A stretch of DNA of 64,000 nucleotides from Candidatus Bathyarchaeota archaeon (GCA_963702095.1 OY969706.1:320001-384000); one strand, 5' to 3'; counted from the stretch's first letter, positions 6,699 through 60,997 are shown. The notes: a model not told the origin generated them from the sequence alone. Made by a program: numbers and translations.

Positions 6699-6880
6699 GT
6701 ACATGTTTCCACACTTATATGCTGTCCGCTTCAACATAGAGCCATGCAGAGCATGTGGAAGAAAAACGTTTATCCCACATCGAAAAAGACGCAAAGAAAC
6801 AACCCAAACACAAAACACAACCGCATCCACACGCCGTCTTGTGACAGACTATAAATCGTCACACCCAAATAAAGAAAAAA
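6699..6880 (+). repeat. dispersed intergenic repeat family B, copy B1
   Basis: CCATGCAGAGCATGTGGAAGAAAA...TCCCACA..GAAA.AGAC...TCTTGTGAC..GTCACACCCA.ATAAAGA, homologous to the reverse complements of 43625-43935 and 60673-60997. Confidence 0.8.
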
Positions 6881-6904
6881 GAAGACTTTTGTGTAAAAAA
6901 AGAG

Positions 6905-7714
6905 TTAATGCGAAAACAGCTTCGCATAGGGTCTGCTTGACAGCGGCAGGATCTTTTTGAATTTGTGGTTGAGGATGGCTTTTGGGTCGCCGCCAAAGTA
7001 GCTACAGTACTCATTAACCAAGTGTGTGATGACTGCCATGTCCCGTTTGCCCACGTCCTCGGTTTTTGTGCCTTCGACTGGGCAGAGGAATTCGCCACGT
7101 TCATAGATGACGCCGCCATGCATGCCTGTGCCGACGAAGCGTGCAATGCATTTTTCGCCTTCTTTTAGGTTTAAGCCCAAAATGCAGATGACTCCGCCAG
7201 CCATGTACTCAGCGAGGAAGTCGCCTGCGGTTTCGCCGATGACTATGGTTGGCACCTTCTTTTGGTACTGTTTCATGTGGATGCCGCCTCGGTAGCCAAC
7301 GTAGTCTTTGACGAAGATTTTGCCGCCTCTAATGCTGTGGCCGGTGACGTCGCCTGCGTGTCCATGGATGATGATAGCGCCTTCGTTCATGGTATTGCCG
7401 CAGCCGTCTTGTGCGTTGCCGTGGACGGTTACTTGGGGTCCATTCATGAATGCGCCTAAGTCGTTGCCGGGTGTGCCATAGAGGTCAATGGGTACTGTGG
7501 TGTTTAAGTCGGTGCCTATGTAGCGTTGTCCACAGACGTTATGGACTTCGATGCGTTCTATGCCTTCACGTTGTATGACTGCGCGGAGGATAGCGTTTAG
7601 GTCTCGGTAGTACATGTCGCAGGCGTCAACTTTGACGGTTTTGCCTTCGACTGTGACACGTTTCTCGTATTTGGGGTCGATTGTTTTGGGGTTAATTCTT
7701 TCTGGTACCTGCAT
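6905..7714 (-). CDS. glutamate synthase GXGXG (beta-helix) domain subunit
   Basis: GQRYIG, GTPGNDLGAFM, GNAQDGCGNTM, GDFLAEYMAGG, GTGMHGG. Confidence 0.9.
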   Translation of the reverse strand: MQVPERINPKTIDPKYEKRVTVEGKTVKVDACDMYYRDLNAILRAVIQREGIERIEVHNVCGQRYIGTDLNTTVPIDLYGTPGNDLGAFMNGPQVTVHGNAQDGCGNTMNEGAIIIHGHAGDVTGHSIRGGKIFVKDYVGYRGGIHMKQYQKKVPTIVIGETAGDFLAEYMAGGVICILGLNLKEGEKCIARFVGTGMHGGVIYERGEFLCPVEGTKTEDVGKRDMAVITHLVNEYCSYFGGDPKAILNHKFKKILPLSSRPYAKLFSH

Positions 7715-7718
7715 ACTT

Positions 7719-9230
7719 TTACTCTCCTGCCATTTTAACGCCCAAGATCCCTAGCTCCTGCTTGGTTAAGCCGACGCCTCGAAGTGCAAGTCGGTTGCCG
7801 CGGAGGCTTTCTATGGCGTTTATGCCCATGCCGCCCATCATGTCTTTAATTTCGTGACTCCAACTGTGCAGCATGTTGATTAGGCGTTGGGATGCAACTT
7901 CGGGGTTGACGCGTTTGCCAATCCAGGGATCGCTTGTGGTGATGCCCCATGGGCATTTGCCTGTGTAGCAGCGTTGGCAAACTGTGCAGCCGATGGCGAC
8001 AAGCGCCGCTGTGCCAATGTAGACTGCGTCGGCGCCCAAAGCGATGGCTTTGAAGACGTCTGAGGCACTTCGGATGCCGCCTGCAGCGACGATGGAGGCT
8101 CGGTTGCGGATGCCTTCGTCTCTTAGGCGCTGGTCAACCTGTGCCAATGCGAGTTCGATGGGTATGCCGACGTTGTCACGGATGGTTTTGGGTGCTGCAC
8201 CGGTTGCGCCGCGGACGCCGTCCATGGCAACGATGTCTGCGCCTGCCCGTACAATACCGCTTGCTATTGCGGCGATGTTGTGGACTGCCGCGACTTTGAC
8301 GCTGACGGGTTTGGTGTAGTTGGTGGCTTCTTTGAGGGCGTAGATGAGTTGGCGGAGGTCTTCGATTGAGTAGATGTCATGCTGTGGGTAAGGCGACAAT
8401 GCGTCGGTGCCCGTTGGTATCATGCGGGTTTTGGCGACGGGTTCGGTGACTTTTTCGCCTGGCAAGTGGCCGCCGATGCCTGGTTTGGCGCCTTGACCGA
8501 TCTTGATTTCGACCGCTGCTCCCGCGTTAAGGTAATTGGGGTGAACGCCAAATCTGCCTGAAGCAACCTGAACGATGGTGTGGTCGCCGTATTGGTAGAG
8601 GCTTTGGTCTAAGCCGCCTTCGCCTGTGTTGTAGTAGGTGCCGCATTCGCTGGCTGCCCGCGCCAAAGCTGCGTGGGTGTTTAGGCTAATGGCGCCATAG
8701 GACATGGCGGAGAACATAACGGGGGTGTCGAGGCAAAGCTGCGGGGCAAGCTGTGTTTTGAGTTCTGGGGCACCGTTTTCGTAGTTGATGTCAAGTTTGT
8801 CGGGTTTGGCTCCGAGGTAAGTGCGGATTTCCATGGGTTCACGCAGTGGGTCGATGCTGGGGTTGGTGACTTGGCTGGCGTTTAGCAGCAATCTGTCCCA
8901 GTAGGTGAAGGCGGGTTTGTCGTTGCCCATGCCTGTGATTTGGACAGTGCCTGTTTCGGCTTGTTTTTTGAGGTCGCGGATGGCTTCGGCTGTCCAGTTG
9001 GCGTTTTCACGGTTTGCGTTGGGGTTCTTTTTGATGGTTATGGCGTTTGTTGGGCAAAACGTGACGCAGCGTTGGCAGTTGACGCAGTTGGCATCTTTGC
9101 TAACTATGCTGTCTGTTTCTGGGTCGTAGCTGTGGGTTTCATAAGTGCATTGGTTAACGCAGACTTTGCAGCGTATACAACGATTAGTGTCGCGTTCGAC
9201 GAGGAATTCGGGAATTAAGTATGTTTTCAT
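7719..9230 (-). CDS. archaeal glutamate synthase FMN-binding subunit with N-terminal 2x[4Fe-4S] domain
   Basis: CIRCKVC and CVNCQRC..CP, AMSYGAIS, NTGEGG, QVASGRFGV, EIKIGQGAKPGIGGHLPGEKV, CTVCQRCYTGKCP. Confidence 0.95.
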   Translation of the reverse strand: MKTYLIPEFLVERDTNRCIRCKVCVNQCTYETHSYDPETDSIVSKDANCVNCQRCVTFCPTNAITIKKNPNANRENANWTAEAIRDLKKQAETGTVQITGMGNDKPAFTYWDRLLLNASQVTNPSIDPLREPMEIRTYLGAKPDKLDINYENGAPELKTQLAPQLCLDTPVMFSAMSYGAISLNTHAALARAASECGTYYNTGEGGLDQSLYQYGDHTIVQVASGRFGVHPNYLNAGAAVEIKIGQGAKPGIGGHLPGEKVTEPVAKTRMIPTGTDALSPYPQHDIYSIEDLRQLIYALKEATNYTKPVSVKVAAVHNIAAIASGIVRAGADIVAMDGVRGATGAAPKTIRDNVGIPIELALAQVDQRLRDEGIRNRASIVAAGGIRSASDVFKAIALGADAVYIGTAALVAIGCTVCQRCYTGKCPWGITTSDPWIGKRVNPEVASQRLINMLHSWSHEIKDMMGGMGINAIESLRGNRLALRGVGLTKQELGILGVKMAGE

Positions 9231-10348
9231 TACTGTTCACCTTTGATGTTTTTCAGTCGGCAAATTACTGGTTCGCCTCCTCTGGGTGCCCAAAACTTGT
9301 CCAGCACAGGAGTAACTCGCCGCATAGCGGATTCCTCAGACGAGAGGTACATCATGTCGCCTTTGCTGCCCGCAACCATCGGACGCAGTTTAATGCGGTC
9401 GGTTAACCCAATCATTTCATTGCGGTTAGCGATGACGATGCTAAACGGCCCATTCATCAGTAAGCTGCCATATGTTTGGCGTAGCGCCCCCAGTAACGCT
9501 GCCTGTTTGGGTTCCATAGTGTCGATTTCACTCCATAGCGGCGACGCAAACACCTGCGCAACCAACTCCACCGGCAAATGCTGCCGACGCATCAGCAAGT
9601 CCACTGCGTACGCGAGGACTTCAGTGTCAGTTTGCATGGTGCATTTGTAACCGTGCATTTCGAGGAAACGGCGGTTGATGCCGTAGCTGGAGAGTTCACC
9701 GTTGTGGATGACGGTCCAGTCTAAGATGTTGAATGGGTGTGCTCCGCCCCACCAGCCCGGTGTGTTGGTTGGGAACCGGCTGTGGCAGGTCCAGAGGTAA
9801 CCTTGATAGTCGTCTAAGCAGAAGAATTCAGCAACATCCTCTGGGAAACCGACGCCTTTGAAGACGCCCATGTCTTTGCCGCTGCTAAACACGAAGGCTT
9901 TGCCTGTTTCAGTGTTGATGCGCATGACGGCTTCGATGACGTAGTCTTCTTCTGTTTGGTGTTCAGGGCGGCGTTTTTTAGGTTTTACGAAGTAGCGCCA
10001 AACCGTTGGTGGGTTATGGACGTTGGCATTTGGGTTGGTTTGCATTTCTTCGTCGTATACTATTTCGAATCGAGATGCAAGTATATGGTCTGTTTTTTCT
10101 TTAGCGTCTCTACTCAAATACATGATGTGGAATGCATAGTAGTCTTTGAATTGAGGATAGATGCCATACACTGCGAAGCCGCCGCCGAGTCCGTTGCCGC
10201 GGTCATGCATGTTTACCATGGCGCGGACGGGGTCTTTGCTGCCGAATCGGTTGCCAGCGGTGTTCATGGCGGCGTATATGCCGCAGGCTGAGAAGTCTTT
10301 GTCGTCGCCGTAGGGGTTGATTATTGTTTTTTGGTCGTATTGGTTCAT
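9230..10348 (-). CDS. glutamate synthase class II glutamine amidotransferase subunit
   Basis: ACGI, MHDRGNGLGGG, HSRFPTNTPGWWGGAHPF, HNGELSSYG, TDTEV, DRIKLRP. Confidence 0.92.
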   Translation of the reverse strand: MNQYDQKTIINPYGDDKDFSACGIYAAMNTAGNRFGSKDPVRAMVNMHDRGNGLGGGFAVYGIYPQFKDYYAFHIMYLSRDAKEKTDHILASRFEIVYDEEMQTNPNANVHNPPTVWRYFVKPKKRRPEHQTEEDYVIEAVMRINTETGKAFVFSSGKDMGVFKGVGFPEDVAEFFCLDDYQGYLWTCHSRFPTNTPGWWGGAHPFNILDWTVIHNGELSSYGINRRFLEMHGYKCTMQTDTEVLAYAVDLLMRRQHLPVELVAQVFASPLWSEIDTMEPKQAALLGALRQTYGSLLMNGPFSIVIANRNEMIGLTDRIKLRPMVAGSKGDMMYLSSEESAMRRVTPVLDKFWAPRGGEPVICRLKNIKGEQ

Positions 10349-10350
10349 GT

Positions 10351-11631
10351 TTATTGCGCCACCTTCATTTTCTTCTGTAAACTCGATGGCAACGTGGCTA
10401 AGCTAAAGTCGTCGTCGAGCAGTTTTGCCTTGAACTTTTTGACGTTGACAGCGTTCTTCATGATGTAGAAGCGCACGCCAGCGCCTTCGATGCAGTTTAC
10501 CAGTGTCATGCCGACGATTACGTCGTTTCGCAGCACCAGTTTCTTGTACACCTTCGCCTCTGCATCCATCTTTACGAGGATTTCGAGGGTAGAGTCCTCT
10601 TTGGGGTTAGCTAAACCGATGGAGACGATGGGTATGTTGAAGTATTTGAGGCTGCTCATGTTGGTTCCGCCCTTGTAGATGGCTTTTTGACCAGCCATAT
10701 TGCTGCCTGCAACACGGCCCTCCTCGACTGCTAAGGGCCAAAGGGGTAACTGGCGGTTTTGGCCCAAGATGAAATCGTAGGCTTCCGCTACGTCGCCGCT
10801 GGCATAAACGTCAGGTACGTTGGTTTGCATCGTGTTGTCAACGACTATGCCCCGGTTGACTTTGAGGGGTGTGCCAGTTGCTAAGTCGGTTCTTGGGATG
10901 ACGCCGATGGCAACTATGACTAAGTCAGTGGGTACGGTGTCGCCTTTGGTTAAGACTACGCCGCCGACTGCGCCTTCGTTGCCCTCTTTGCCGATGATTT
11001 TCTGGACAGATTGCCCAGTCATGATGTTGACGCCTGCGGCTTTGACCACGGATTCCACGATGTCAGAGGCTTTGGGGTCAAGGAGTAAGCTGAGAATTTT
11101 ATCCTGCAACTCAACCATCGTCACCTTCAAACCCCGCTTGGTTAAGGCGTCGGTTACGCTTATGCCGATTAAGCCTGCGCCGATAACCACTGCGGACTTG
11201 GCGTTTACGGCGTCAATTTTGGCAGAGAGCTGTTCAGCGTCTTTTATGGTGGTAAACGTGAATACGCCGTCTTTTTCCTGTCCCTCCATCTTGGGCACAA
11301 AGGGTTTGCCGCCTGTGGCTAAGAGGAGTTTTTCGTAGGATATTTTTTCGCCGCTCTCCAAAGTTACGGTTTTTGCCGCTGTATCTATTGCAGCGGCTTT
11401 TTTGCCAAAGATTGTTTGGACATTGCTTCGCACCCAGAAGCTGTCTTCTCGGCACTTCATTTTGGGAAAATCTGCTTTGCCACTGACGTAGTCGCTGATC
11501 ATGGGGCGACTGTACTGGGGGCAGGGTTCATCGGAGATGACTACGAGGGTGCCGATTGGGTCGTCTTCGCATATGGCTTCAACTGCGCCGATGCCTGCTG
11601 CTGAAGCGCCGACTATGACATACTTTGCCAT
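10351..11631 (-). CDS. FAD/NAD(P)-dependent pyridine nucleotide-disulfide oxidoreductase (probable electron-input subunit of the operon)
   Basis: GASAAG FAD motif, LLATGG, VVIGAGLIG, TNVPDVYASGD. Confidence 0.88.
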   Translation of the reverse strand: MAKYVIVGASAAGIGAVEAICEDDPIGTLVVISDEPCPQYSRPMISDYVSGKADFPKMKCREDSFWVRSNVQTIFGKKAAAIDTAAKTVTLESGEKISYEKLLLATGGKPFVPKMEGQEKDGVFTFTTIKDAEQLSAKIDAVNAKSAVVIGAGLIGISVTDALTKRGLKVTMVELQDKILSLLLDPKASDIVESVVKAAGVNIMTGQSVQKIIGKEGNEGAVGGVVLTKGDTVPTDLVIVAIGVIPRTDLATGTPLKVNRGIVVDNTMQTNVPDVYASGDVAEAYDFILGQNRQLPLWPLAVEEGRVAGSNMAGQKAIYKGGTNMSSLKYFNIPIVSIGLANPKEDSTLEILVKMDAEAKVYKKLVLRNDVIVGMTLVNCIEGAGVRFYIMKNAVNVKKFKAKLLDDDFSLATLPSSLQKKMKVAQ

Positions 11632-11632
11632 T

Positions 11633-12076
11633 TTAGCCCCTCACCTCGATGAATACTAGGGCTTGGTTGGGGCAGTTGGCGACGCATGCGGGTTCTTTTT
11701 GGTCTTGGCAGAGGTCGCATTTAGCTGCTACGTGGTTTTCTTTGTCCATTTTTATGGCGCCGTAGGGGCAAACCATGATGCAGGTCCAGCAGCCGATGCA
11801 TTTGTCTTTGTTGTGTTTGACTTCGCCTGTTTTTTCGTCTTTGGTCATGGCGCCGGTTAGGCATGCGGTTACGCAGGTGGCGTCTTCGCAGTGGCGGCAT
11901 TGGATGGCAAAGGAGATGGGTTTGTTGATTTGCCGTTGGATTCGGCTTATGGGTTTGGGTTGTTCGCTGTTGTAGGATTTGATTATGTCTTTGGTTTTTG
12001 AGTGTGCGACGGTGCAGTAGACTTCGCAGAGTCCGCAGCCGATGCAGGCTTCTTGTTTGGCGACTATTTTTTTCAT
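11633..12076 (-). CDS. 4Fe-4S dicluster protein (CooF/HydN-like)
   Basis: CIGCGLCEVYC, CRHCEDATCVTAC, CIGCWTCIMVCP, KCDLC..PACVANCP; ATG at 12076 preceded by GAGG. Confidence 0.9.
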   Translation of the reverse strand: MKKIVAKQEACIGCGLCEVYCTVAHSKTKDIIKSYNSEQPKPISRIQRQINKPISFAIQCRHCEDATCVTACLTGAMTKDEKTGEVKHNKDKCIGCWTCIMVCPYGAIKMDKENHVAAKCDLCQDQKEPACVANCPNQALVFIEVRG

Positions 12077-12219
12077 GGGGTATCCTCTTTTTTTGGGGGT
12101 TGGCGCGGACATGTGAGCATGTGGATGTGAAGTTCCACGTCACTTGTGCAGGAAACACCTTTGCTTATTGTTGATTGATCATTTTTTTTGATTGCTACTT
12201 TACAGGTGTTTAGCGGCAT
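12073..12219 (-). CDS. 48-aa small protein heading the glutamate-synthase operon (not in the ORF track)
   Basis: MPLNTCKVAIKKNDQSTISKGVSCTSDVELHIHMLTCPRQPPKKEDTP*; AAGGA upstream; stop overlaps the ferredoxin start as ATGA. Confidence 0.55.
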   Translation of the reverse strand: MPLNTCKVAIKKNDQSTISKGVSCTSDVELHIHMLTCPRQPPKKEDTP

Positions 12220-12347
12220 TCTGTATCCTTCTTTAACTTAGAGTGCCCACCTGAATAGCATGTTTTCTATATAACTTTGTTGATAATCATTTATATGAAA
12301 GAACGTGATACACGTAATGTAAATGAATCGTTTACCAGGGATATGCT

Positions 12348-13451
12348 TTGGCAGAAAAAGACCTAGGATATAGAAAAGTCCAATGCACAGGCAGAGGCTC
12401 CTACATCATCTCACTCCCAAAAGAATGGGTCGAAGACATCGGCTTAAAACGCGGCAGCGAAATAGCGTTTAACATCCAACCCGACAACACACTATCACTC
12501 GTACCCAGAAAAATCGCTGAACGCGAAGGCAAAACCGACGCCGACAAACTCAAAGAATACGTCATAAACGTCGACCCCAAAGAAGCCCCCGAATCAGCCC
12601 TACGCATGATACGAGCCCTCTACGCCATAGGAGCCGACATCATACGCATCCACTTCAAAAACCAAAAAGACGCCCCAAAATACAAAAACGACACCAAAAA
12701 CTTTGTGCGCGACACTTTTCTTGGCGCTGAAATCATAGATGAAACCCCCGACGAAATCACCCTCCAAATTCTTATAAAACACAGCGAATTCGGCATAGAG
12801 AAAGCGGTCCGCCGCATGGCAATCGTGGCGCTTGCAGCCAACCGGGACGCAATCGCCTCTCTCACCGACAGCAATCCCTCACTTGTGGAAAGCGTGACAC
12901 ACGCCCGAAACGACGTTAACCGGCTGGGACTCTACATCGTGCGCCAACTCAAATACGGCATCGAACGCAACCTCTACCGCGAACTCGGCTTCCGCACACC
13001 CAAAGAGTTCTTGCTCTACCGCATAGCCGTCAACGATATCGAAAATATCGGAGAAAACGCCCTAAATATCATGAACAACATAAGCGCATTTAGAAAACTC
13101 ATCGACGACGAAACTCTCTTCATAAAAGACCCAATAGACGAAGAAGTGCATGGGCAACTGATGAGCTATTATACGCAGGCACAGCAGTTCTACGAGGACG
13201 CTGTTAAAGCAGTGTTTAAGCGTGACTACAAAGACGCTGAGAAGTTGATTTCGAAGCGGGAAACGTTTGCTGCTTTGGAGATGGAGTTGATGATGTTGAT
13301 TTCGAGCAAGAAGATGGACCCCAATGTGACGGCGATTTTGCGGTTGATTTTTGACAACGCCAAACGCATCATGGACTACGGCAGAAACATGGCTGAGCTC
13401 ACATTAAACCGCACCGTAGAAGAACTCTGCTCAACATTAACCTACAAGTAA
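12348..13451 (+). CDS. AbrB/SpoVT-PhoU phosphate-uptake-regulator family protein
   Basis: RKVQ.TGRGSYIISLPKEW AbrB domain followed by helical PhoU-like repeats (DIENIGE, KRIMDYGRNMAE). Confidence 0.85.
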   Translation: MAEKDLGYRKVQCTGRGSYIISLPKEWVEDIGLKRGSEIAFNIQPDNTLSLVPRKIAEREGKTDADKLKEYVINVDPKEAPESALRMIRALYAIGADIIRIHFKNQKDAPKYKNDTKNFVRDTFLGAEIIDETPDEITLQILIKHSEFGIEKAVRRMAIVALAANRDAIASLTDSNPSLVESVTHARNDVNRLGLYIVRQLKYGIERNLYRELGFRTPKEFLLYRIAVNDIENIGENALNIMNNISAFRKLIDDETLFIKDPIDEEVHGQLMSYYTQAQQFYEDAVKAVFKRDYKDAEKLISKRETFAALEMELMMLISSKKMDPNVTAILRLIFDNAKRIMDYGRNMAELTLNRTVEELCSTLTYK

Positions 13452-13472
13452 GCTATACATGTAAGAGAATGG

Positions 13473-13550
13473 TGGTGCTCCGGCCGGGATTCGAACCCGG
13501 GTCCGCGACTCGAGAGGCCGCTATACTTGACCGGACTATACTACCGGAGC
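13473..13550 (-). tRNA. tRNA-Glu(CTC)
   Basis: GCTCCGG acceptor, anticodon arm GCGGC-CT CTC GA-GTCGC, GGTTCGAATCC T-loop, encoded CCA. Confidence 0.95.
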
Positions 13551-13716
13551 ACAGTTTTAGCGTACATACAGATTTCTTCTGTATTAATTTACCTTCCTCT
13601 CAAAACAGCCTGATAGAATAGCAAACCGTAGGTCAGGTCAGCCAATTAGACTTTTTTTGGGTTTTATGGCTGAATTTTTAAGGCAGAACCTACCACTCTT
13701 CTGGGGAGGCATCTGC

Positions 13717-14151: not shown

Positions 14152-14192
14152 AAACGAAACAAAAATTAAAATAAAGGAAAGTTAGGGGAAGC

Positions 14193-15842: not shown

Positions 15843-16061
15843 ATGTTATCCCTACTGTAGTAGAATCTTGTTTAATTCGGAATATTGCAAAAAGTAAACA
15901 GAAATATAAACTTTAAGGCTTATCGAGAGCACTTGTGGGTTTTGACTGTTTTCCTAAGGGCACAACGGTTCTATACAGAGACTACGATGGAGGCGGGCTG
16001 TAACGTAGTTGTTGTTGCAAGTGTTTTTAAGAAGCCCTTACCCCTAGCAGTATAGCCGGCA

Positions 16062-18784: not shown

Positions 18785-18794
18785 GGCGATAAAA

Positions 18795-20073: not shown

Positions 20074-20115
20074 AAGAAAATACTCCCTCCTTAACAATGG
20101 ATTAAAGGGTTTTCT

Positions 20116-20258
20116 TTCTGCTTGAGGATTTGCCCTCAACCAGCCAGCAACCTGCACCGCAACCAGAAAATAAAATGCAACCACCAGCAAAACCCACAGG
20201 AAGAAGAAGAGTAGGGGACCACTGCCTTCTTCTTAAACTAAAAAAACAAAAAAGCCCA
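20116..20258 (+). repeat. dispersed repeat family A, copy A2
   Basis: TTCTGCTTGAGG..CAACCAGCCAGCAAC...GAAGAAGAAGAGTAGGGGACCACTGCCTTCTTCTTAAACTAAAAAAACAAAAAAGCCCA. Confidence 0.85.
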
Positions 20259-26574: not shown

Positions 26575-26578
26575 CTTT

Positions 26579-28656: not shown

Positions 28657-28849
28657 TAAGCATTAACCTCAAGACGCTATAGTTTTGTCACGCGCTTATT
28701 TTAGGTTTCGGAAGGACTATTCCATAGCTTCTAGCACTTCCAGCATTAGCATAATTCGATCGTGACAAAACTGCGCGGGTGCTTAGTAGAAGAACAGCGT
28801 TTGTCTCTCCCAGAGGACCCCTACAACTGTAGGTTGAAGGGGTCTTTGG

Positions 28850-28993
28850 TTCTGCTTGAGGTTTGTTCCACAACCAGCCAGCAACCCCTCCACATTGCAG
28901 AACACAAAACACAGCCGCCTGCATGACCCGCCAGAAGAAGATGAGTAAGGGGCACTCTGCCTTCACCTAACAATAAAAAAACAAAAAAGCCCA
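28850..28993 (+). repeat. dispersed repeat family A, copy A3, preceded by a hairpin at about 28813-28847
   Basis: TTCTGCTTGAGG..CAACCAGCCAGCAAC..TGCAGAACACAAAACACAG..GAAGAAGATGAGTAAGGGGCACTCTGCCTTC..AATAAAAAAACAAAAAAGCCCA. Confidence 0.85.
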
Positions 28994-36558: not shown

Positions 36559-36956
36559 CGATTTATTGGCTAATCGACTTGGCCCTTATGTAATTTACGG
36601 AAAACGTTTCTGAACTCAGCTATATCAGGGTTGTACGGGATTGATTATTGTTAGGTTGTTGGTTTGAAGTTTTTTAAAGTGCTTATCTGTAGTGTAGATG
36701 GTTGGGGTAGATTCTGGGGCTTATGCAGGCATTCGTTTTCTTTAGTCAGATTGTTTTTATGGTTGCAGTGCTACTTCGAGTGGTGTATCACCCTCTCGAG
36801 CCATGTTAGTACCTGAACCGCACTGGACACATATCGACTGCCACGCAATGTGCACCTGTGGTGCGTTTTCCGCCAACATATTAGGATCCAAATATCAAAC
36901 CTATGCAGAAACCAGCAGAGGGAGGGTAGCGTCTCGGTGAAACCGTGCGTTTTACG

Positions 36957-37011
36957 CAATTCAACTGATGAAAGATTCTGAATAGAGTTGGCAGAGCAAC
37001 AGAACTCCGCT
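36957..37011 (+). repeat. degenerate fragment of repeat family B (3' end), B4
   Basis: CAATTCAAC...AGAGTTGGCAGAGCAACAGAACTCCGCT resembles the reverse complement of 60672-60725 (CAATTCAAC...AGAGGTCGGCAGAGCAGCAGAGCCTCGCT). Confidence 0.45.
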
Positions 37012-43130: not shown

Positions 43131-43523
43131 TTATGCTTTTTCTTTACCGATGAGTATAGCGTTGATGATGCCGTCATTGCCTGGTCGGCTTGTAACCTTT
43201 GCCAATCCCAACTGAGTTTCGATTTCTGCGCCTTTGGTGATGACGCCTCGACGGTTATAATCTACGTTTGCTCCGTTGCGGACTACGCGGACAATCTCGC
43301 TTTTCTGGGTTTCACCAGTCTGGGGATTGGTGACAGATGCGTATTTGTCGGTTAAGGCTTTGATTTTGCTTCCGCCGCCTATGGTGCGTTGAATTTTGCG
43401 TTTGGGTTTGCCAAGGATGGTTTCGGCTGGGTATCCGCCTGCTTCGTACAGTTTTTTGGTGCGGTAAACGCGTTTTTTGCCGCCTGTAAGTTTCCTTTTA
43501 CGTAAACTGCTATGAGTAGACAT
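43131..43523 (-). CDS. rps8e: 30S ribosomal protein S8e
   Basis: RK.TGG, NVDYNRRGVITKGA.I.T..G.A.VTSRPG.DG.INA. Confidence 0.95.
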   Translation of the reverse strand: MSTHSSLRKRKLTGGKKRVYRTKKLYEAGGYPAETILGKPKRKIQRTIGGGSKIKALTDKYASVTNPQTGETQKSEIVRVVRNGANVDYNRRGVITKGAEIETQLGLAKVTSRPGNDGIINAILIGKEKA

Positions 43524-43624: not shown

Positions 43625-43935
43625 GCTGTTGCTCTGCAGAGGCTCCCCCTGATTTCGGTAAATTGTTTTTTCTCTTTATGTGGGTGTGGCGTTTTATGGG
43701 GTGCCACAAGACTGCAAGCGGATGCGGTTGCTTTTTTGGGAAGCATTGCGTTTCCGCGTCTGTTTCGGTGTGGGATATGCTTTTTCTTCCACACGCCATA
43801 CATGGCTCCATGCAGAGGCCGCCGGGATGTGTGTGAATACATGTATCATTTGCTTTCTTAGCGTGGCAGTGAACAGCAATGACAGCACAATACAAGCGGA
43901 CACCAGTATGGCCCTTGGGCAACTTTAGCCATCTC
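43625..43935 (-). repeat. dispersed repeat family B, copy B2
   Basis: Colinear over about 310 bp with 60673-60997 (e.g. TATGTGGGTGTGGCGTTTT..GGGGTGCCACAAGA; TTTTCTTCCACA; CATGTATC; GCAATGAC.GC.CAAT). Confidence 0.85.
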
Positions 43936-43988
43936 TCACTTCCAACCGCACAAAAACAACCCACCCCTAAAAGCAATTTTGCCCACAA

Positions 43989-44081
43989 AAACTAGTACTT
44001 CTACCAGCCGTAGTTGCAATAATAGTGTCCATCTTTATCGTTGGCGCTGTACTCGCAGTGCTTGTTAGGAAACGGCCATAA
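43989..44081 (+). pseudogene. orphan C-terminal membrane anchor of a surface-protein gene
   Basis: KLVLLPAVVAIIVSIFIVGAVLAVLVRKRP* followed by ccccttttttctttttt; in-frame TAA at 43968 and no start codon ahead of the helix. Confidence 0.55.
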
Positions 44082-44366
44082 GTAGCCATAAAAAAACCCC
44101 TTTTTCTTTTTTTGGATTGAAAATCGGTAAAATAACTGTGGGCTAGGTGGGCTCTGGATAAAGTTAATGCAGTCGCGGTTGAAGGATGGTTTAGTTGCAT
44201 TTTCCATTCTTTCTTACTTGGGTTTCAGAGCTCCAGCAAACCCATCGCATACTTCTTTGTGACTGTATAGTATCAATCACAAATCATTAAAAGCTTTTAC
44301 AAGCACATTCTGTACTCAGTTCGGTACGAGAGCTAAAACGGTTAAAATTACGAGGTAAATGGAAAT

Positions 44367-48841: not shown

Positions 48842-48909
48842 TTGGGTTGCCTCAAAGAATAGATGGGGGACTGTGGAATATTAGTTTAGCAGTTCACAAA
48901 GCGTTCACT

Positions 48910-49044
48910 TCGTTTTTTTATTGTTAGATGAAGGCAGAGGCGCCCTTGCTCATCTTCTTCTTGGGGGCTTGGTGGGCAACTGTGTTTTGTGTTCTGCAAA
49001 GGATTTGGGTTGCTGGCTGGTTGTGGCGTAATCCTCAAACAGAA
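48910..49044 (-). repeat. dispersed repeat family A, copy A4 (inverted)
   Basis: Reverse complement: TTCTGTTTGAGG..CAACCAGCCAGCAAC..TGCAGAACACAAAACACAG..GAAGAAGATGAGCAAGGGCGCCTCTGCCTTC..AACAATAAAAAAACG. Confidence 0.85.
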
Positions 49045-49122
49045 CAGAGGAACCTATGAAAGCAGCAACCTCAATGTTTCGATAGATTCAAATTTCCAAA
49101 CACCCAAGCCTACTTGAACGCC

Positions 49123-51825: not shown

Positions 51826-51970
51826 AAAACGTTTAGGAAAGCACTCTGGGAGTTGAGAGTCTTTTTAATGTTGGCGAAATATTAATTAGGCGCACAGAAA
51901 GATTACATGATGCATCTTCATCCAGTGGATGGCATTCCGCACAAACGGAGTTTTAAGGGAGCACAAAACT

Positions 51971-52615: not shown

Positions 52616-52618
52616 ACA

Positions 52619-54544: not shown

Positions 54545-55100
54545 GCAAAGGTTCACTGCCACTTTTTACTGGCGCCGGAGTTTTCTCCCGCCAAATCCTA
54601 ACACTTTTCGGACAAATAACCACGCGTTCCTCGCCTAAACGTGCGATGTCTCCGCCTGTTTCTTCAGCAAACTGGAACAAGTCATTAACGGCGGTTTTTA
54701 CATCCTCAATGCTTTTGGTGGCAAGAGGCGTTATGCGTAGAATTATGATGTTGCCTTCTTTGACTTCAGCTTTAACTTTCTCTACGTCGGAGAGTTCTTT
54801 GAGGGGCATCGCTTTTAGGTAGGTTTTGCTGTTTGTCGTTTCAGCTTTAATTTCTTGTTTCTCTTCAACTGGTGGCGTAACGGTTGGCTCCTCCTGCGGT
54901 GACGCTTGGGGAACAGACGGGGCTTCCTGCGGTTGGCTTTCCTCAGTGGTAATCATTTCAGCGGCAGCTACGGGTTCCTCAACAGTGGCAGGTTCGGGCG
55001 CAGGTTGGTCGGACACTGTTTGTTGCGATGTTTCTTGAGAAGGTACAGCTGACGCTTCGGATTCTACCTGTTTCTTTTTGTGGAATAGATTCAACGGCAT
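54531..55100 (-). CDS. sepF: cell division protein SepF with low-complexity N-terminus
   Basis: EGNIIIL.I.PL, GGDIARLGE..VVI.P..VRI. Confidence 0.85.
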   Translation of the reverse strand: MPLNLFHKKKQVESEASAVPSQETSQQTVSDQPAPEPATVEEPVAAAEMITTEESQPQEAPSVPQASPQEEPTVTPPVEEKQEIKAETTNSKTYLKAMPLKELSDVEKVKAEVKEGNIIILRITPLATKSIEDVKTAVNDLFQFAEETGGDIARLGEERVVICPKSVRIWREKTPAPVKSGSEPLPTTA

Positions 55101-55344
55101 TTTACTCTCAACCTTATGTATTCTAGGTTGTACAGTTAAGCGTTTCTTTACTGCTGCTTTCTAGACGCTTATTTAATGTTAGATTTGCTGACCACCAATA
55201 TTTGATTTGCGTTTCACAACTCAACTTGAAACTTGCTTTCAACAGGTTTAAGGTAGTTTCTAGCGGTTTTTGAGGCGGTTAAGCAAGAAAAGTTGGAGCC
55301 CCCGTTGCGCGATGGAGTTGACTGCCAGATTGGATGAGGGTGTT

Positions 55345-55716
55345 TCATGAGAGTAAGACCAAGAAGTTATTGGTGATGACTATAGCTAAAAACAGGATTA
55401 CGCCTGCATAAGCGACTTTCGTAAACAAGTTGGAGTAGTGATAGCTTTTACTCGTTTTATCTTGGGTTTGATTGAGCATTCTCCTCGCAACTATGTAGGT
55501 GATTCCGATGAAGAATGTCGCCGCAAGCTTGAGGACCACAAACGCAAAAATGTTTGTATGGACTATGCCCGCTAAGAATGGGTTAAGTTCGCTTGCTCCA
55601 TAATGGAGAACGCCAATAATTGTGGTTAATGCGTCAATTGACCCCATCACTATCAACATAATACTGGGCAGCATTACTGCTCTAAAGTGGTACATGGCCT
55701 TTCTCCTTTCTCCCAA
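55345..55716 (-). CDS. DUF5658-like membrane protein
   Basis: D.LTT..G...GA.ELNP motif, several TM helices. Confidence 0.7.
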   Translation of the reverse strand: MGERRKAMYHFRAVMLPSIMLIVMGSIDALTTIIGVLHYGASELNPFLAGIVHTNIFAFVVLKLAATFFIGITYIVARRMLNQTQDKTSKSYHYSNLFTKVAYAGVILFLAIVITNNFLVLLS

Positions 55717-55927
55717 ATTTTAATTCGTTGGCTTATCTTAATAAGGACATTCCCAAAATCGATATATCAAAAACAAAAACATTCGTCGGCTGGCTTTCTT
55801 AGGCGCTGTTGCCTTTTTACCTGTTACTGCAATAGTGTTTAACGATTTAACCCATAAACGTTATCAATATTAACAAGCAACAGTGAATTTAACTAAATTT
55901 TAAATACCACTTCTATAGTTAAACAGA

Positions 55928-56122
55928 TTGGGGATACCTATACCGGCAGAATTTGAAATTAGAAATACAGTTGATGGACGATTCTACTGGCGATTTAAGG
56001 CAATTAACGGTGAAATCGTCGCCGTTAGCGAAGTGTATGAATCAAAGCAGGGCTGCAAGTCGGGTATAGACTCGATTATGAGTAACGCAGTTTTTGCTCT
56101 TATTCGAGATCAAACTCTTTAA
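55928..56122 (+). CDS. YegP/DUF1508-family small protein
   Basis: FEI....G.FYWR.KA.NGEI.A.SE.Y.SK..C..GI.S. Confidence 0.85.
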   Translation: MGIPIPAEFEIRNTVDGRFYWRFKAINGEIVAVSEVYESKQGCKSGIDSIMSNAVFALIRDQTL

Positions 56123-56244
56123 CCACTTCTTTTTTCTGAGAAGCTAAGACTTGAAGCTAACAGTTATCTTTGGTTAAAAGATGACTTTACCTGCGCATAA
56201 GCCTTATATTTTTAAAGTTAACCTCTTTTGCTGAAGGGTTACCT

Positions 56245-57315
56245 ATGCATAAAAGACTCCTAATCCCGGGCCCCACAGAAGTAAGTAAAGAAGTGCTTGA
56301 AGAACAAGCTCACTACCTAATCGGTCATAGAGAAAAAGAGTTCTCCGAGTTATACGGCGGAATAACAGATAAAATCGCCAAATACTTCCAATTACCCGCC
56401 GACTACAAACCGACTGTCACCACTGGTTCAGGAACCCTATGGTTTGACATAATCGGCAGAAGCGTAGTTAAGGAACGTGCGCTCGCATGCGTCAACGGCG
56501 CCTTCAGTCAGCGATGCGCTCAAACACTTACCTCATGCGGCAAACAAACCGACATCTTAGAAGTCGAGATGGGCAAGCCAATTAAACCAGAAATGGTCGC
56601 ACAGAAACTTGCCAGCGGCAAATATGACACCTTAACCGTTTGCCACAACGAAACCAGTACAGGCGTCCGCAGCCCAATCGCTGAAATCGGCAAAATGGTC
56701 AAAAAAGAGTACCCCGACGTCATCTTTGCAGTGGACGCTGTTTCGTCGATGGCAGGCGATAAAACCCTTCCCCACGAAATGAACTGCGATATCGTTTTTG
56801 GGTCGACACAGAAATGCTTTGCCCTTCCACCCGGCTTAGCTATAGGGCTCGTAAGTGACCGTGCCGTCGAAAGAGCCAAAACCGTGCCGAACAGAGGCGC
56901 CTATACTGACTTAGTTGACATATTCGAGTTTGAAAAGAAACACCAGACCCCTTTCACACCTAACGTTTCATTGCTTTATGCATTAAACAAACGCATGGAT
57001 TTGCTCCTCGCCGAAACATACGACAAAGTTTACCAGCGACATCTAGACATGGCAAACTATACTCAGGCGTGGGCAAAGAAGCACTTTAGTATGTTCCCAG
57101 AGCCAGGCTACGAATCCATAACGGTCAGTTGTATAAACAGCAATGGCAAAGACGTCAAAGCAATGAACAACACACTCGGTGAAAGAGGCTACTTGATCTC
57201 TGCTGGCTACGGAAAACTAAAAGAAAAAACCTTCCGTATCGGCCACATGGGCGAATGGAACCTCGATGGCATCAAAGACGTACTCGCCAATATAGACGAC
57301 GTTTGGGGCTTGTAA
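56245..57315 (+). CDS. class V PLP aminotransferase (AGT/SerC-like)
   Basis: LIPGPT, HNETSTG, VDAVSS, STQKCFALPPG, FRIGHMG. Confidence 0.9.
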   Translation: MHKRLLIPGPTEVSKEVLEEQAHYLIGHREKEFSELYGGITDKIAKYFQLPADYKPTVTTGSGTLWFDIIGRSVVKERALACVNGAFSQRCAQTLTSCGKQTDILEVEMGKPIKPEMVAQKLASGKYDTLTVCHNETSTGVRSPIAEIGKMVKKEYPDVIFAVDAVSSMAGDKTLPHEMNCDIVFGSTQKCFALPPGLAIGLVSDRAVERAKTVPNRGAYTDLVDIFEFEKKHQTPFTPNVSLLYALNKRMDLLLAETYDKVYQRHLDMANYTQAWAKKHFSMFPEPGYESITVSCINSNGKDVKAMNNTLGERGYLISAGYGKLKEKTFRIGHMGEWNLDGIKDVLANIDDVWGL

Positions 57316-58218
57316 TTGACCATTAAAATCCTTGTTAGCGACAAAATCGCTGACGAAGGCTTAAGAATCCTTGAAGACCAAGGTTATCAGGTTACCCGGG
57401 GATGGGATATACCTAAACCCGATTTGCCCAAAGTGATCTGTGAATACGACGTCTTAATTGTGCGGAGCGCCACCAAAGTTAAGGGTGAACTGCTTGATAA
57501 CGCCAAAAAACTCAAAGTTATCGGCAGAGCAGGCGAAGGCTTAGACAACGTGGATTTTGAACGTGCCAAACAACTTGGAATCACCTTGGTTAACACGCCT
57601 CATGTTTCCTATGTCAGTGTCTCAGAACTCAGCATAGGACACATGATTGCGCTTGCACGCAACATCGTCCAAAGCACACTCTCCATGCGTGAGGGTAAAT
57701 GGGAAAAAGACAAGCTTATGGGCACCGAACTCAACGGCAAAACGCTGGGCGTTATCGGCTGCGGCTTCATCGGCAAAGACGTCGAGCGGCTGGCTTTGGC
57801 GTTGGGCATGAAAGTCATCGTTGTAGAAGAATGCGTCTTTGACCGTTTTGTGCCCCTCGGCGACATGCTGCCTAAGGCAGACTTCATCACAATTCATGTG
57901 CCTCTAACGACTAAGACAAAACATATGATTTCAACCAAAGAGTTCAACCTCATGAAAAAAGGCGTGTACATTATCGACTGCTCACGGGGCGGCGTAATCG
58001 ATCAGGCTGCCCTCTACCAAGCACTCTTAAGCGGCAAAGTTGCGGGTGCCGCACTTGATGTTTTCGAGGAGGAGCCGCCTAAAGACCGCAGGCTTTTCGC
58101 CCTCAGCAATGTCATAGCTACACCTCACATGGGTGCTCAAACACATGAAGCGCAACATAGAGCAAGCATACAAATAGCCAATAACGTTATAGATGCGCTT
58201 GAAAAACTCAACCTCTGA
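57316..58218 (+). CDS. serA: D-3-phosphoglycerate dehydrogenase (no ACT domain)
   Basis: LIVRSATKV, RAGEGLDNVD, GVIGCG.IG, HVPLT, RGG, LDVFEEEP, TPHMGAQT.EAQ. Confidence 0.85.
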   Translation: MTIKILVSDKIADEGLRILEDQGYQVTRGWDIPKPDLPKVICEYDVLIVRSATKVKGELLDNAKKLKVIGRAGEGLDNVDFERAKQLGITLVNTPHVSYVSVSELSIGHMIALARNIVQSTLSMREGKWEKDKLMGTELNGKTLGVIGCGFIGKDVERLALALGMKVIVVEECVFDRFVPLGDMLPKADFITIHVPLTTKTKHMISTKEFNLMKKGVYIIDCSRGGVIDQAALYQALLSGKVAGAALDVFEEEPPKDRRLFALSNVIATPHMGAQTHEAQHRASIQIANNVIDALEKLNL

Positions 58219-58230
58219 AGCTGAAAGCGC

Positions 58231-59508
58231 ATGGTAGACGTCAGACCCTTCAAAGCCCTAACTTACACGCCAAAAGCCGGCAAAACAGAAAACCTCATCA
58301 CACAGCCCTATGACAAAATCGACGTTGCCGCCCAGAAACGCTACTATGACCTTTCACCCTACAATTTTTGCCGCTTAATTCTGCCCCTTGAAGAAGACAA
58401 ATACCGTGTCGCCAAAGAACGCATCGACATGTGGCAAAGAGAAGGCGTTATGACCAAAGAAGCCCAACCCGCCATCTACGTTTCCCGCCAAACGTTTAGC
58501 TTAGAAGGCAAACGCTACTCCCGCACAGGCTTAATCGCGGCGCTACGGCTCTATCCCTACAATGAAAACATGGTTTACCCTCATGAACGCACCTACAAAG
58601 CCCCCAAAGCCGACCGCTTAAACATGCTGCGAACGGTCCAGAAGGATTTGGAACCTGTGTTTTTGATGTATCAAGACCCAGAAGCCCAGACTATCCGTTT
58701 TATGGATGAAGTCGCAAAAACCAAGCCGCAGATTGAGGTTACAGATGCCTTGGGGGTTCATCATTGGCTTTGGAAGGTGTCTGACCCACAGAAAATCCGT
58801 CAAATCCAAGCAGTTTTGGCGCCAAAAGCGATGGTTATCAACGACGGTCACCACCGCTACGAAAGTGCATTGGCGTACCGCGACGAAATGCGTGCAAAGG
58901 GCGTTTGGAGCGAGGATTCCGGGTTTAACTTTCACATGTGCTACATGGTGCCTGTGCAGGAAGAAGGATTGGTTGTGTTGCCCACTCATCGACTGCTAAA
59001 AAACTGCAAGTTAACCCCCGAAGTTCTTGGCAGTCTCAACTGCTTCTTTGACGTATTTGAAATCCCAGCGACGGTGGATGCCCTCGAAGGTTTCTTGGGC
59101 AGGCATGTCGGTGAACATGCTTTCTGTGTTTATGACGGTAAAAAAGCCTTTGGATTAACCCTAAAACACGACAAAGCTGTCTACGACTTCATAAACACCC
59201 ATGTGTCGAGGGAAACCAAGGTTTTCGATGTTGTGATTCTCCGTGACATCGTTTTTAAGCAGGTTTTGAAAACTGGAGAGTTGAATTTGGATGACACGAT
59301 TCTCTATGAACGTTGGGCTAAAGACGCAATGGCTAAAGTTGATCAGGGAGAAGCGTCTGTGGCGTTTTTGGTGAATCCGATTCCGGCGAAGACCGTGGCG
59401 GAGATTGCATTGCAACATGAGCTTTTGCCCGAGAAAAGCACTGATTTTTACCCTAAAATGGTGTCTGGCTTGGTGCTTATGGATATTTCTGCCGACGAAA
59501 AGCTCTAG
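58231..59508 (+). CDS. DUF1015-family protein
   Basis: PYD, PHE.T, I.DGHHRY..A, PTHR, KST.FYPK..SGL. Confidence 0.88.
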   Translation: MVDVRPFKALTYTPKAGKTENLITQPYDKIDVAAQKRYYDLSPYNFCRLILPLEEDKYRVAKERIDMWQREGVMTKEAQPAIYVSRQTFSLEGKRYSRTGLIAALRLYPYNENMVYPHERTYKAPKADRLNMLRTVQKDLEPVFLMYQDPEAQTIRFMDEVAKTKPQIEVTDALGVHHWLWKVSDPQKIRQIQAVLAPKAMVINDGHHRYESALAYRDEMRAKGVWSEDSGFNFHMCYMVPVQEEGLVVLPTHRLLKNCKLTPEVLGSLNCFFDVFEIPATVDALEGFLGRHVGEHAFCVYDGKKAFGLTLKHDKAVYDFINTHVSRETKVFDVVILRDIVFKQVLKTGELNLDDTILYERWAKDAMAKVDQGEASVAFLVNPIPAKTVAEIALQHELLPEKSTDFYPKMVSGLVLMDISADEKL

Positions 59509-59600
59509 GCCGCAATTGAGTTAGCGATTATTTGATGCAAAGTATTATTTAGCCCTACCTTGAATAGGGTTTAACATGACAAAGAGAGGAGAATCTCGGT

Positions 59601-60329
59601 ATGACTGAAGTGGAGAAACCAGCATCTGTACCAGAATCCATCAAACCAACAACCCGGTATCTTGCCGAACTCATCGGAACCATGGTTTTAGTGTTGATAG
59701 GCTGCGGCAGCGCAGTAATTGCAGGCGGTTACACGGGGGTAGGCTATGCTTACCTAAGCATTGCTTTTGCCTTCGGCTTAGCTGTGTTAGTGATGGTTTA
59801 TGCCATCGGCGGAATTTCAGGTTGCCACATAAACCCTGCAATCACGGTTTCTATGTTGGTTGCCAAAAAAATAGGCGTTAAAGACGCTGCATTCTACATT
59901 GTCTTCCAATGCATCGGCGCAGTGATTGGCGCAGGCATACTCTATGCAATCGCAGTGGGCACTCCGATTTTCAACATCAACGTAACAGGCTTAGGCCAAA
60001 ACGGCTACGGCAGCGCTTCTATGGCTAATTACAATCTGCTCTCAGCTTTGATCTCTGAGATTGTGTTAAGCTTCATCTTCATATTGGTTGTGCATGGCGC
60101 AACGCATCAACGTGTGCCCAAGGGCTTCGCAGGATTAGCCATCGGCTTGTCATTGACCATGGTTCACATAATAGGCATACCCATCACGGGAACATCGGTT
60201 AACCCCGCGAGAAGTCTGGGTCCAGCGGTTTTTGTGGGCGGATTGGCGCTGGAGCAGCTGTGGTTGTTCTTGGTTGCCCCCATCATAGGTGGCATCATAG
60301 CTGCGTTGGTGTGGAGAGCCTTCAAATAA
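59601..60329 (+). CDS. aqpZ: aquaporin (MIP family)
   Basis: SGCHINPA and GTSVNPARS NPA boxes. Confidence 0.9.
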   Translation: MTEVEKPASVPESIKPTTRYLAELIGTMVLVLIGCGSAVIAGGYTGVGYAYLSIAFAFGLAVLVMVYAIGGISGCHINPAITVSMLVAKKIGVKDAAFYIVFQCIGAVIGAGILYAIAVGTPIFNINVTGLGQNGYGSASMANYNLLSALISEIVLSFIFILVVHGATHQRVPKGFAGLAIGLSLTMVHIIGIPITGTSVNPARSLGPAVFVGGLALEQLWLFLVAPIIGGIIAALVWRAFK

Positions 60330-60360
60330 AAAACTGAAAATTTAAAATCCTTTTTCTTTT

Positions 60361-60507
60361 TTATTTCACGAATTTTGTAGGTTGACGCTTGAAACGCTTC
60401 TTGCACACTAAACTGCAGAAATGGTAAGTTTCGCCATCATAAGAAATCTTAAACTTCGCAGTGTTCTCGTCGAGAACTGCTCCGCAAACTGGGTCTCTCA
60501 TCGACAT
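60361..60507 (-). CDS. YHS/TRASH domain protein
   Basis: DPVCG...Y.G.TYHFCS..CK..F...P. Confidence 0.85.
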   Translation of the reverse strand: MSMRDPVCGAVLDENTAKFKISYDGETYHFCSLVCKKRFKRQPTKFVK

Positions 60508-60672
60508 TGGTAGTGTTATAGCCTCAGTGCACAAATCGCTGTTCACGCATTTATGGTTAGTGGTGCCCGCCGAGTGAATTGACCTTTTTTTCTTTGGCGG
60601 TTTTGTGGAAAAACGGTTTTTTGGGCAGTTTTCGTGGGTTTAACCTCAGATTGGTTGATGCTTCTGTATACA

Positions 60673-60997
60673 GCGAGGCTCTGCTGCTCTGCCGACCTCT
60701 CCCCTCCCCTATAAGCGTTGAATTGTTTTTCTCTTTTTATGTGGGTGTGGCGTTTTGCGGGGTGCCACAAGATGGCAGTTGGGGGCGTTTGTGTTTTGGG
60801 GTTGCAACGGTTTTCTTTGTCTGTTTTGGTGTGGGAAGTGCGTTTTCTTCCACATGCGGTGCATGGACGCATGTTGCGGTGGACTGCATGTGTATGTGGG
60901 GGCATGTATCGTTTGTTTTTTTAGCGAGCAGTAAGTGGCAATGACGGCGCAATGCAGTCGGGTACTGGTGGCTCATTCAGGCAGGTTAAGCCATATC
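60673..60997 (-). repeat. dispersed repeat family B, copy B3
   Basis: Colinear with 43625-43935 and with the reverse complement of 6699-6880. Confidence 0.85.

Follow-up and report, generated by a model that had tools for sequence, protein, structure and literature searches.

Several described systems come close to the element reported here. MITEs (miniature inverted-repeat transposable elements) are known also from Sulfolobus and haloarchaea. Others include mosaics of bacterial interspersed mosaic elements and repetitive extragenic palindromes (BIME/REP), short interspersed nuclear element (SINE) retroposons and relics of IS200/IS605 insertion sequences. Our literature search, whose general part on archaeal MITEs and dispersed repeats extended to abstracts, turned up no paper on such repeats in Bathyarchaeia. 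Here we describe family B, a dispersed repeat found in a 64-kb stretch of a Candidatus Bathyarchaeota chromosome (GCA_963702095.1, OY969706.1:320001-384000). This whole stretch is called the window, and coordinates refer to it unless a genome position is named. The genome it comes from (G000) is one contig of 2,937,366 bp with 46.8% G+C, 90% complete by marker genes.

We read family B, with a probability of about 45%, as a fossil, non-autonomous dispersed intergenic repeat that is kept for sequence-specific recognition. It would have spread in the ancestor from which a sub-lineage of one Bathyarchaeia genus descends, and would no longer move. After this burst, copies would have resided at fixed loci for a long time while a set of sequence blocks was maintained. 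The full unit is strand-specific and consists of T-runs, a word like a transcription factor B recognition element and TATA box (BRE/TATA; CAAAATTGCTTATAGG), a G/T-rich spacer of ~28 nt, an A/C-rich body of ~280 nt ending in …CCACACCCACATAAAGAGA, and an A-rich tail. Together with a second repeat, family A, it covers ~1.8% of the chromosome, a large share of its intergenic DNA; Bathyarchaeia are an uncultivated and globally abundant archaeal class.

Copies, borders and retained blocks

We searched the genome iteratively with nhmmer (E <= 1e-5), using a hidden Markov model (HMM) of the family with 297 positions. The search gave 120 hits, 56 on the + strand and 64 on the - strand. These represent ~117 elements, as three loci are each split into two hits, and cover 25,414 nt or 0.87% of the 2.94-Mb chromosome. 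All copies are intergenic and lie in either orientation relative to their neighbours. The 120 hits place the resemblance far beyond chance. When each copy was compared together with 1.5 kb on either side, similarity ended at the element borders, dropping from thousands of pairwise hits within to background beyond. The composition is asymmetric, with an A/C-rich strand opposite a G/T-rich one. The 3' end is sharp, with 109 hits extending at least to HMM position 265, and the 14 nt after the body are 53% A. The 5' end is ragged, with starts spread from HMM position 2 to >200. Of the 109 3'-complete copies, 47 start at or before position 25 and 62 after it; about half of all copies lack the 5' third. 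Inspection of the hit list by eye revealed no replichore or strand bias. Subfamily structure was rejected: the strongest column correlations linked only neighbouring columns.

The blocks of this element are conserved in place. In the closest genome (G007), whose genes are 82-90% identical to those of G000, we compared 24 copies at 22 loci. For 16 of them we could assign a G000 copy that lies next to one shared flank or both. These positional pairs were 0.81-0.96 identical at the 130 family-conserved columns, while four-fold degenerate sites in 31 flanking genes were 0.648 identical between the two genomes. The blocks are therefore kept well above the neutral proxy. At the 107 variable columns the same pairs were only 0.41-0.58 identical (random pairs had a median of 0.40-0.47). 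The variable part has reached or passed saturation, and in no case does the positional partner clearly stand out as the closest match. The copies within G000 are also diverged from one another, with a median pairwise identity of 0.68 and only 2 of 4674 pairs above 0.9.

A protein-coding role of the element was rejected. Conservation by codon position was 0.80/0.81/0.78, without three-base periodicity, and deletions of 1, 2 and 3 nt numbered 69, 22 and 4. A 66-codon frame on the G/T-rich strand (MWVWRFxGCHKTA…) looks protein-like, but 36 of 69 copies stop it before codon 45. Both strands are poor in stop codons and skewed in composition, which explains the long chance open reading frames (ORFs). 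The earlier note was right to describe a multicopy, strand-asymmetric, non-coding element. Spurious ORFs of 82 and 121 aa lie wholly inside the copies B2 (43680-43928, +) and B3 (60579-60944, +). Our crude ORF caller placed an ORF of at least 90 aa over 49 of 109 copies, and such frames may pass as hypothetical proteins. Spurious ORFs in the A and B repeats can thus pollute gene calls.

The window holds three copies and one remnant, with the following parts:

6695..6895, + strand: B1, a 5'-truncated copy (HMM positions 88-287; nhmmer E 3.5e-44)
6743-6755, + strand: CATGC-N3-GCATG hairpin in B1, read directly
6753..6780, + strand: inverted repeat Ha in B1, ATGTGG, 16-nt spacer, CCACAT (family consensus GTGTGG-N15-CCACAC)
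6840..6863, + strand: inverted repeat Hb in B1, TGTGAC-N12-GTCACA (family consensus TGTGGC-N12-GCCACA)
36957..37011, + strand: isolated tail module (…GAGTTGGCAGAGCAACAGAAC…), a remnant; G007 has a full B at the orthologous site (locus L030)
43625..43654, - strand: 3' tail module of B2 (…GCCTCTGCAGAGCAACAGC…)
43655..43937, - strand: B2, full-length (HMM 2-286; nhmmer E 3.7e-81; covariance model (CM) 187.5 bits)
43938..43995, - strand: 5' module of B2, a T-run with a BRE/TATA-like word (caaaattgcttttagg) after it, ~28 nt ahead of where body conservation starts
60673..60703, - strand: 3' tail module of B3 (…GGTCGGCAGAGCAGCAGAGCC…)
60704..60997, - strand: B3, full-length (HMM 4-296; nhmmer E 2.2e-67); positional counterpart in G007 at L046
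60998..61055, - strand: 5' module of B3, made up of a T-run and the word ctcaaattcgttaaagcgg; it aligns with the other upstream modules

The positions proposed earlier for the three copies and the fragment all held, with ranges for B2 and B3 that include the 3' tail (…GCAGAGCAACAG…). The flanking genes are functionally unrelated (in the window, by Pfam: ScpB, GXGXG-domain, S8e, aquaporin and NosD-like). B1 lies between the stop of the ScpB gene (6000-6680, +) and the stop of the convergent GXGXG-domain gene (6905-7714, -). B2, the best match to the family model, is upstream of the gene for ribosomal protein S8e (43131-43523, -) and has a positional counterpart in G007 (L029). The neighbours of B3 are an aquaporin gene (59601-60329, +) and a NosD/beta-helix surface-protein gene (61072-62331, -), downstream of which it lies.

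Some side observations concern these neighbourhoods. A further repeat of ~100 nt lies 210-310 nt upstream of B2 (about 44148-44245, -) and recurs at 78-83% identity near genome position 2332252, as well as upstream of the copies located at 100062 and 2724135. The NosD/beta-helix gene upstream of B3 has a paralogue at ~470.5-471.5 kb of the genome (69% identical over 923 nt). The paralogue also precedes a B copy (471470); either gene and repeat were duplicated together or the repeat lies in a 3' context that is conserved. Several B copies follow genes that end in a hydrophobic anchor and a KKRK-type tail.

Single copies appear dispensable and would occasionally overwrite each other. The G007 ortholog of B1 is a partly deleted remnant of 111 nt, and opposite one G007 copy G000 carries a family A element. 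Identity between B2 and the copy at genome position 2,335,387 is 91%, though the latter locus also has a diverged B in G007. The copies at G007 loci L029 and L030 are near-identical and lie ~7 kb apart in G000 terms. The L030 flank maps to window 38804-37039, and in G007 the full B copy comes next.

B copies also mark sites of chromosome rearrangement, namely inversion or translocation breakpoints, at which they are enriched. Non-collinear junctions between G007 and G000 were found at 8 of 15 scorable B junctions and at 2 of 27 neighbouring non-B junctions (Fisher p = 0.0016). At eight G007 loci (L012, L033, L035, L039, L041, L042, L047 and L048) the two flanks of one B map to distant places in G000, and at several of these loci each flank adjoins a different G000 B copy (for example, at 930.9 kb and 769.7 kb). 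In addition, a 4.3-kb gene block of G007 (G007:C52:7363-11636) is missing from G000 at 2,335,333-2,335,663, directly next to a B copy. At its start the block has small ORFs, among them those for a membrane protein and a helix-turn-helix-like protein. As a marker of breakpoints, the element should be useful for studying genome plasticity and assembly breaks in Bathyarchaeia metagenome-assembled genomes (MAGs).

Hairpin arms, covariation and predicted recognition sites

The earlier note had interpreted family B as a structured RNA or single-stranded DNA (ssDNA) with compensatory base changes. Its hairpins read as described: TGTGAC/GTCACA with a 12-nt loop in B1, TGTGGC/GCCACA in B2 and B3, and CATGC-N3-GCATG. 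We checked four small hairpins, comprising 24 proposed pairs: GTGTGG-N15-CCACAC (Ha), TGTGGC-N12-GCCACA (Hb), CATGY-N3-GCRTG and GTTGC-N11-GCAAC. The core alignment contained 150 distinct sequences from ~15 species (64 from G000, 23 from G007 and 63 from ~13 further genomes), that is, 150 of the 154 available, with the four lowest-ranked left out.

The claim of compensatory changes did not survive this alignment. The Hb pair that is doubly changed in B1 counts GC 92, AC 6, GT 6 and AT 1 in G000; among the 150 copies it is GC in 136, GU in 3 and AU in a single one, B1 itself. Over all 24 pairs, changes on both sides numbered 11, against 11.9 in shuffles (441 of 500 shuffles reached 11), and 80.5% of cells were paired, against 79.9%. 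The covariation score was 0.109, against 0.100 in shuffles (5 of 500), a difference that, as the tool warns, is seen in 5-25% of unconstrained related alignments. RNAalifold predicted no pairs from the 150 sequences. With mutual information under average product correction, the top-ranked pairs were all adjacent columns. The fold of B2 did not stand out from dinucleotide shuffles (z = -0.55 for the A/C-rich and +0.36 for the G/T-rich strand). Rfam gave nothing for B in the window at the gathering level, where only a tRNA passes, and for B2 at E <= 10 gave only chance-level matches of 16 bits or less. A larger alignment free of significant covariation was the outcome that the structured-RNA proposal had itself named as its refutation, and the 150 copies gave exactly this. 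They provide a worked example that one doubly changed pair in three copies is not covariation.

The CATGY-N3-GCRTG hairpin is a partial exception. As proposed, its one-sided changes all give G-U on the A/C-rich strand (TG 65/TA 29; TG 43/CG 41; GC 74/GT 12; A-C 0-3), while the other hairpins show A-C as often as G-U. Each of them is nonetheless a transition on one side of a 5-bp stem. Another hairpin, CAACATGG-AG-CCATGTTG, seemed to covary by eye and was rejected, since one of its pairs counts AT 49, TA 36, AA 44 and TT 11 and the others have no excess.

What is conserved is the sequence of the arms. Conservation varies strongly along the element, invariant blocks alternating with stretches of free sequence. 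The G000 arms of the first two hairpins are nearly invariant (TA 99/99, GC 101/108; for Ha also GC 94, TA 94 and GC 93), and Ha is paired in 85-86% of cells in the 150 sequences, without excess covariation. In the genomes G005 and G014 the TGTGG and CCACA words persist while the loops differ, so conservation of the arms extends to their sequence and is more than complementarity. We interpret this as selection on the sequence of a 180-nt core with the blocks CACAYCCACA, CAACATGG-AG-CCATG, GTGTGG-N15-CCACACCGAAACAG, AAAAAGCAAC and TCTTGTGG-N14-CCACACCCACATAAAGAGA. Since the arms are invariant and their spacers fixed in length but free in sequence, the two TGTGG…CCACA inverted repeats are putative recognition sites for a sequence-specific protein, which may act on the DNA or on a transcript.

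Invariant half-sites with fixed spacing, conserved in place above the four-fold level, would also suit a cis-acting host element (a terminator, insulator or module of 3' untranslated regions) or a platform for a chromosome-organizing or regulatory protein, recruited to ~100 intergenic regions. The G/T-rich strand opens with TTTTTTCTCTTT, T-runs also precede the 5' module, and the sharp end of 62 of the 109 3'-complete copies points towards the 3' end of a convergent gene, frequently at a distance of 0-60 nt. Yet the other 47 face a gene start, and neither orientation nor intergenic class is preferred: by crude ORF calls, ~33 copies are convergent, 23 divergent, 24 co-directional and 29 anti-directional. 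At 280 nt the element also far exceeds what a terminator needs, and 24 of 40 congeners lack it, so that no general cellular role depends on it. We consider this explanation unlikely.

Flanking modules, family A and tests of mobility

Full-length copies are preceded by a module of one or two T-runs, the word CAAAATTG(C/T)TTA(T/A)AGG and a G/T-rich spacer of ~28 nt that leads to the body start TGAGAGATGGC. Of 19 full-length copies from other species, 13 have the word, as does the consensus of the full-length G000 copies; it lies 28-48 nt before body conservation begins. It resembles the TATA-type words 35-45 nt upstream of G000 tRNA genes. The tail that comes after some of the B copies, after the family A consensus and after a third repeat consists of a similar word and, behind it, GG..GGCAGAGCAACAG. 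A search with the 13-mer GGCAGAGCAACAG at two mismatches was too loose to serve as a marker (168 matches, 146 of them not beside A or B and mostly inside genes).

Family A outnumbers B in G000, with 181 nhmmer hits covering 28,503 nt and an A/C-rich core of ~170 nt (…CCACAACCAGCCAGCAACC…). Its copies in the window are:

1395-1540, + strand: family A
20111-20258, + strand: family A
28840-28993, + strand: family A
48909-49054, - strand: family A

Periodicity and indel tests rejected coding for family A as well, though its G/T strand reads like a signal peptide (MKAE.PLLIIF…). An A copy lies within 400 nt of a B copy at 15 loci, on the same strand in all 15 and with B upstream of A in 13. The motif that the earlier note saw in both families is real, and a link between A and B, which it suggested, is supported. 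The third repeat (…ccaacatat.aggatccaaatat…gtgcgttttacgca…) was seen in the window at 36880-37011 (+) and at genome positions 30658, 1402512, 1144959, 1427602 and 930843. It ends in the tail …TATAGGGG…GGCAGAGCAACAG, the one that follows A and B. As all three end in it, the tail or promoter-like word is a junction module common to several repeat families.

Such a module invites a different explanation, in which B is a family of small RNA (sRNA) genes. Each full copy would be its own unit, with T-runs as insulators, a BRE/TATA promoter and an A/C-rich RNA of ~280 nt; CCACA/UGUGG motifs would bind a protein or target, and truncated copies would be dead genes. The upstream word after T-runs, its likeness to the tRNA promoters of G000, the strand-specific composition, the constant orientation relative to family A, the G-U-only changes in CATGY-N3-GCRTG and the blocks conserved in place all agree with this. 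It is harder to reconcile with the missing covariation, RNAalifold structure and thermodynamic signal, and with the lack of an Rfam match even at E <= 10. Moreover, the 62 of 109 3'-complete copies that start after HMM position 25 lack the 5' end of the body and the adjoining promoter-like module, and many copies have no clear terminator after the body. Within one genus, species carry anywhere from 0 to >60 copies, and individual copies decay and are not replaced. We regard sRNA genes as a doubtful explanation on balance, though not far behind the fossil repeat. The conserved blocks and promoter-like module make these repeats good candidates for the first Bathyarchaeia-specific sRNA or protein-binding element.

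The distribution of B is patchy. BLAST with B2 found it in 9 of 24 other species of the genus and in none of 16 genomes of other genera. A CM of the core was run on 40 other species of the genus and matched 16: 24 species had 0 matches, 10 had 1-11, three had 28-36 and three had 65 to at least 66, where 66 is the scoring cap. Of 100 other genomes, sampled across 70 genera of the family, the model matched one. This genome (G069, another genus) has two adjacent matches of 138.6 and 60.9 bits on contig C24 (9414-10332) and two weak ones, which could reflect transfer or mis-binning of the contig or be a relic. At 62 loci in the species collection there is an exact match to an 18-mer from the 3' block; 53 of them have a further HMM match, nearly all in Bathyarchaeia or other archaeal MAGs. 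The remaining nine (eight genome records and one viral) have no further similarity and are attributed to chance, as our arithmetic gives ~17 expected in 596 Gb; a viral or foreign origin was thus rejected. The unequal copy numbers, together with dispersal in both orientations, 5' truncation and modular joining, would indicate a past burst of multiplication.

A fixed A-rich 3' end with 5' truncation is a trait that B has in common with SINEs. The earlier note had gone further and proposed an element mobilized through an ssDNA intermediate, REP/HUH- or IS200/IS605-like, or a SINE-like retroposon. The sharp 3' end with its A-rich tail, the ragged 5' end and the lack of terminal inverted repeats would fit, as would the 3' tail module common to B, A and the third repeat. 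A mobile phase in the past is thus compatible with the ends, but the proposed route finds neither an enzyme nor a duplication signal. RVT_1, Y1_Tnp (PF01797) and the TnpB domains (TnpB zinc-ribbon and OrfB_IS605; PF07282 and PF01385) each had 0 matches in the 90%-complete G000, while positive-control genomes did match. Flanking repeats of 10-11 nt were found in 2 of 98 copies, against 1.1% in controls. Target-site duplications are not in excess, there are no young copies, and the hairpin arms do not covary as those of REP families do. We consider these routes very unlikely.

Enzymes of other families were also sought in G000. DDE_Tnp_1, DDE_3 and Transposase_mut (the IS4/5, IS630 and IS256 enzymes) had 0 matches, again with control genomes that did match. 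We did observe two IS240/IS6-type ORFs of 376 and 385 aa, each with a DDE domain, rve_3 and a SWIM zinc finger:

G000:C1:1962817-1963947 (L212 2318-3448, - strand): IS240-like ORF
G000:C1:1161792-1162949 (L213 2293-3450, - strand): IS240-like ORF

They may be domesticated or decayed transposases. As parents of B they were rejected, since their 74% DNA identity is confined to the ORF and they have no shared, B-like or recognizable IS ends. A longer master element was likewise rejected: BLAST of every copy with its 1.5-kb flanks picked up nothing but adjacent B or A copies, segmental duplications and a single pair of paralogous genes. No full-length parent with a transposase and the same ends was found around any B copy in G000.

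Several points weigh against a fossil repeat kept for recognition, some of them against its mobile past. The consensus begins (T)GAGAGATGGC… and ends …CCCACATAAAGAGA, which by inspection, without a shuffle control, are not reverse complements, so no terminal inverted repeats were seen. Direct repeats in the flanks show no surplus (the mean best score is 5.26, and 5.13 +/- 0.10 for permuted flanks), though decayed target-site duplications would be missed because the copies are old and the 5' border is ill-defined. The four loci examined closely in one sister genome, itself sampled in part, gave no clean empty site and show decay, replacement by A or a larger indel instead. G000 has no partner transposase, its only DDE genes being the two diverged IS240/IS6-like ORFs. 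Other points concern retention. At variable columns the identity of positional orthologs hardly exceeds that of random copies (0.50 vs 0.43), so turnover or gene conversion may add to the apparent constraint, and the breakpoint statistic comes from crude ORF calls and 15 junctions at loci chosen for holding a B copy. Finally, the in-place conservation of 130 columns argues for a present function that the term fossil repeat does not name. The promoter-like module, the 15/15 co-orientation with A and the G-U-only hairpin may point to a transcript, favoring sRNA genes.

A bolder combination would join these strands. B, A and their shared promoter-like/tail module could be >100 promoter-bearing A/C-rich sRNA genes that spread as an archaeal SINE-like element and are now kept because a lineage-specific protein binds the transcripts or the TGTGG/CCACA sites. 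We think this improbable; if true, a mobile and later exapted RNA gene would be a class not described in Archaea.

Comparison with known systems

The fossil-repeat reading finds its nearest parallels among non-autonomous repeats. B resembles MITEs (PMC11602168, PMC10969869) in being non-autonomous, intergenic and multicopy, in its lineage-specific expansion and in copy numbers that vary between close species. Unlike MITEs, it yielded no terminal inverted repeats, duplications or matching transposase in our tests, and its copies are old (median identity 0.68).

With BIME/REP mosaics and with enterobacterial repetitive intergenic consensus sequences, intergenic repeat units (ERIC/IRU) and Correia-type elements, B has in common ~100 intergenic non-coding copies in either orientation and internal inverted repeats (REP doublets, or REPINs, are treated in PMC3116915). 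Modular joining (here B with A), retention at the same locus in relatives, association with rearrangement and a largely obscure function are further likenesses to BIME/ERIC-type repeats. B differs from these in length (280 nt vs 20-130 nt), in lacking terminal inverted repeats and a RAYT/HUH partner, in its A/C-rich strand asymmetry and promoter-like 5' module, and in being archaeal and restricted to part of one genus. In contrast to REP/REPIN, it is not a short GC-rich palindrome, and Y1_Tnp has 0 matches in G000.

SINE retroposons and the right-end (omega/reRNA) relics of IS200/IS605 are similar in their fixed 3' end, 5' truncation, A-rich tail and own promoter-like module. They differ in that G000 has no match to reverse transcriptase, TnpA or TnpB and B has no detectable duplications or conserved RNA scaffold.

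The sponge sRNAs of the CsrB/RsmZ and CrcZ type offer an analogy at most. Its 100 or more putative gene copies would set B far apart from any known sponge RNA. Nevertheless, B would resemble these sponges in its repeated short words (CCACA three times and UGUGG twice) set amid free sequence, in having little global structure and in a promoter of its own.

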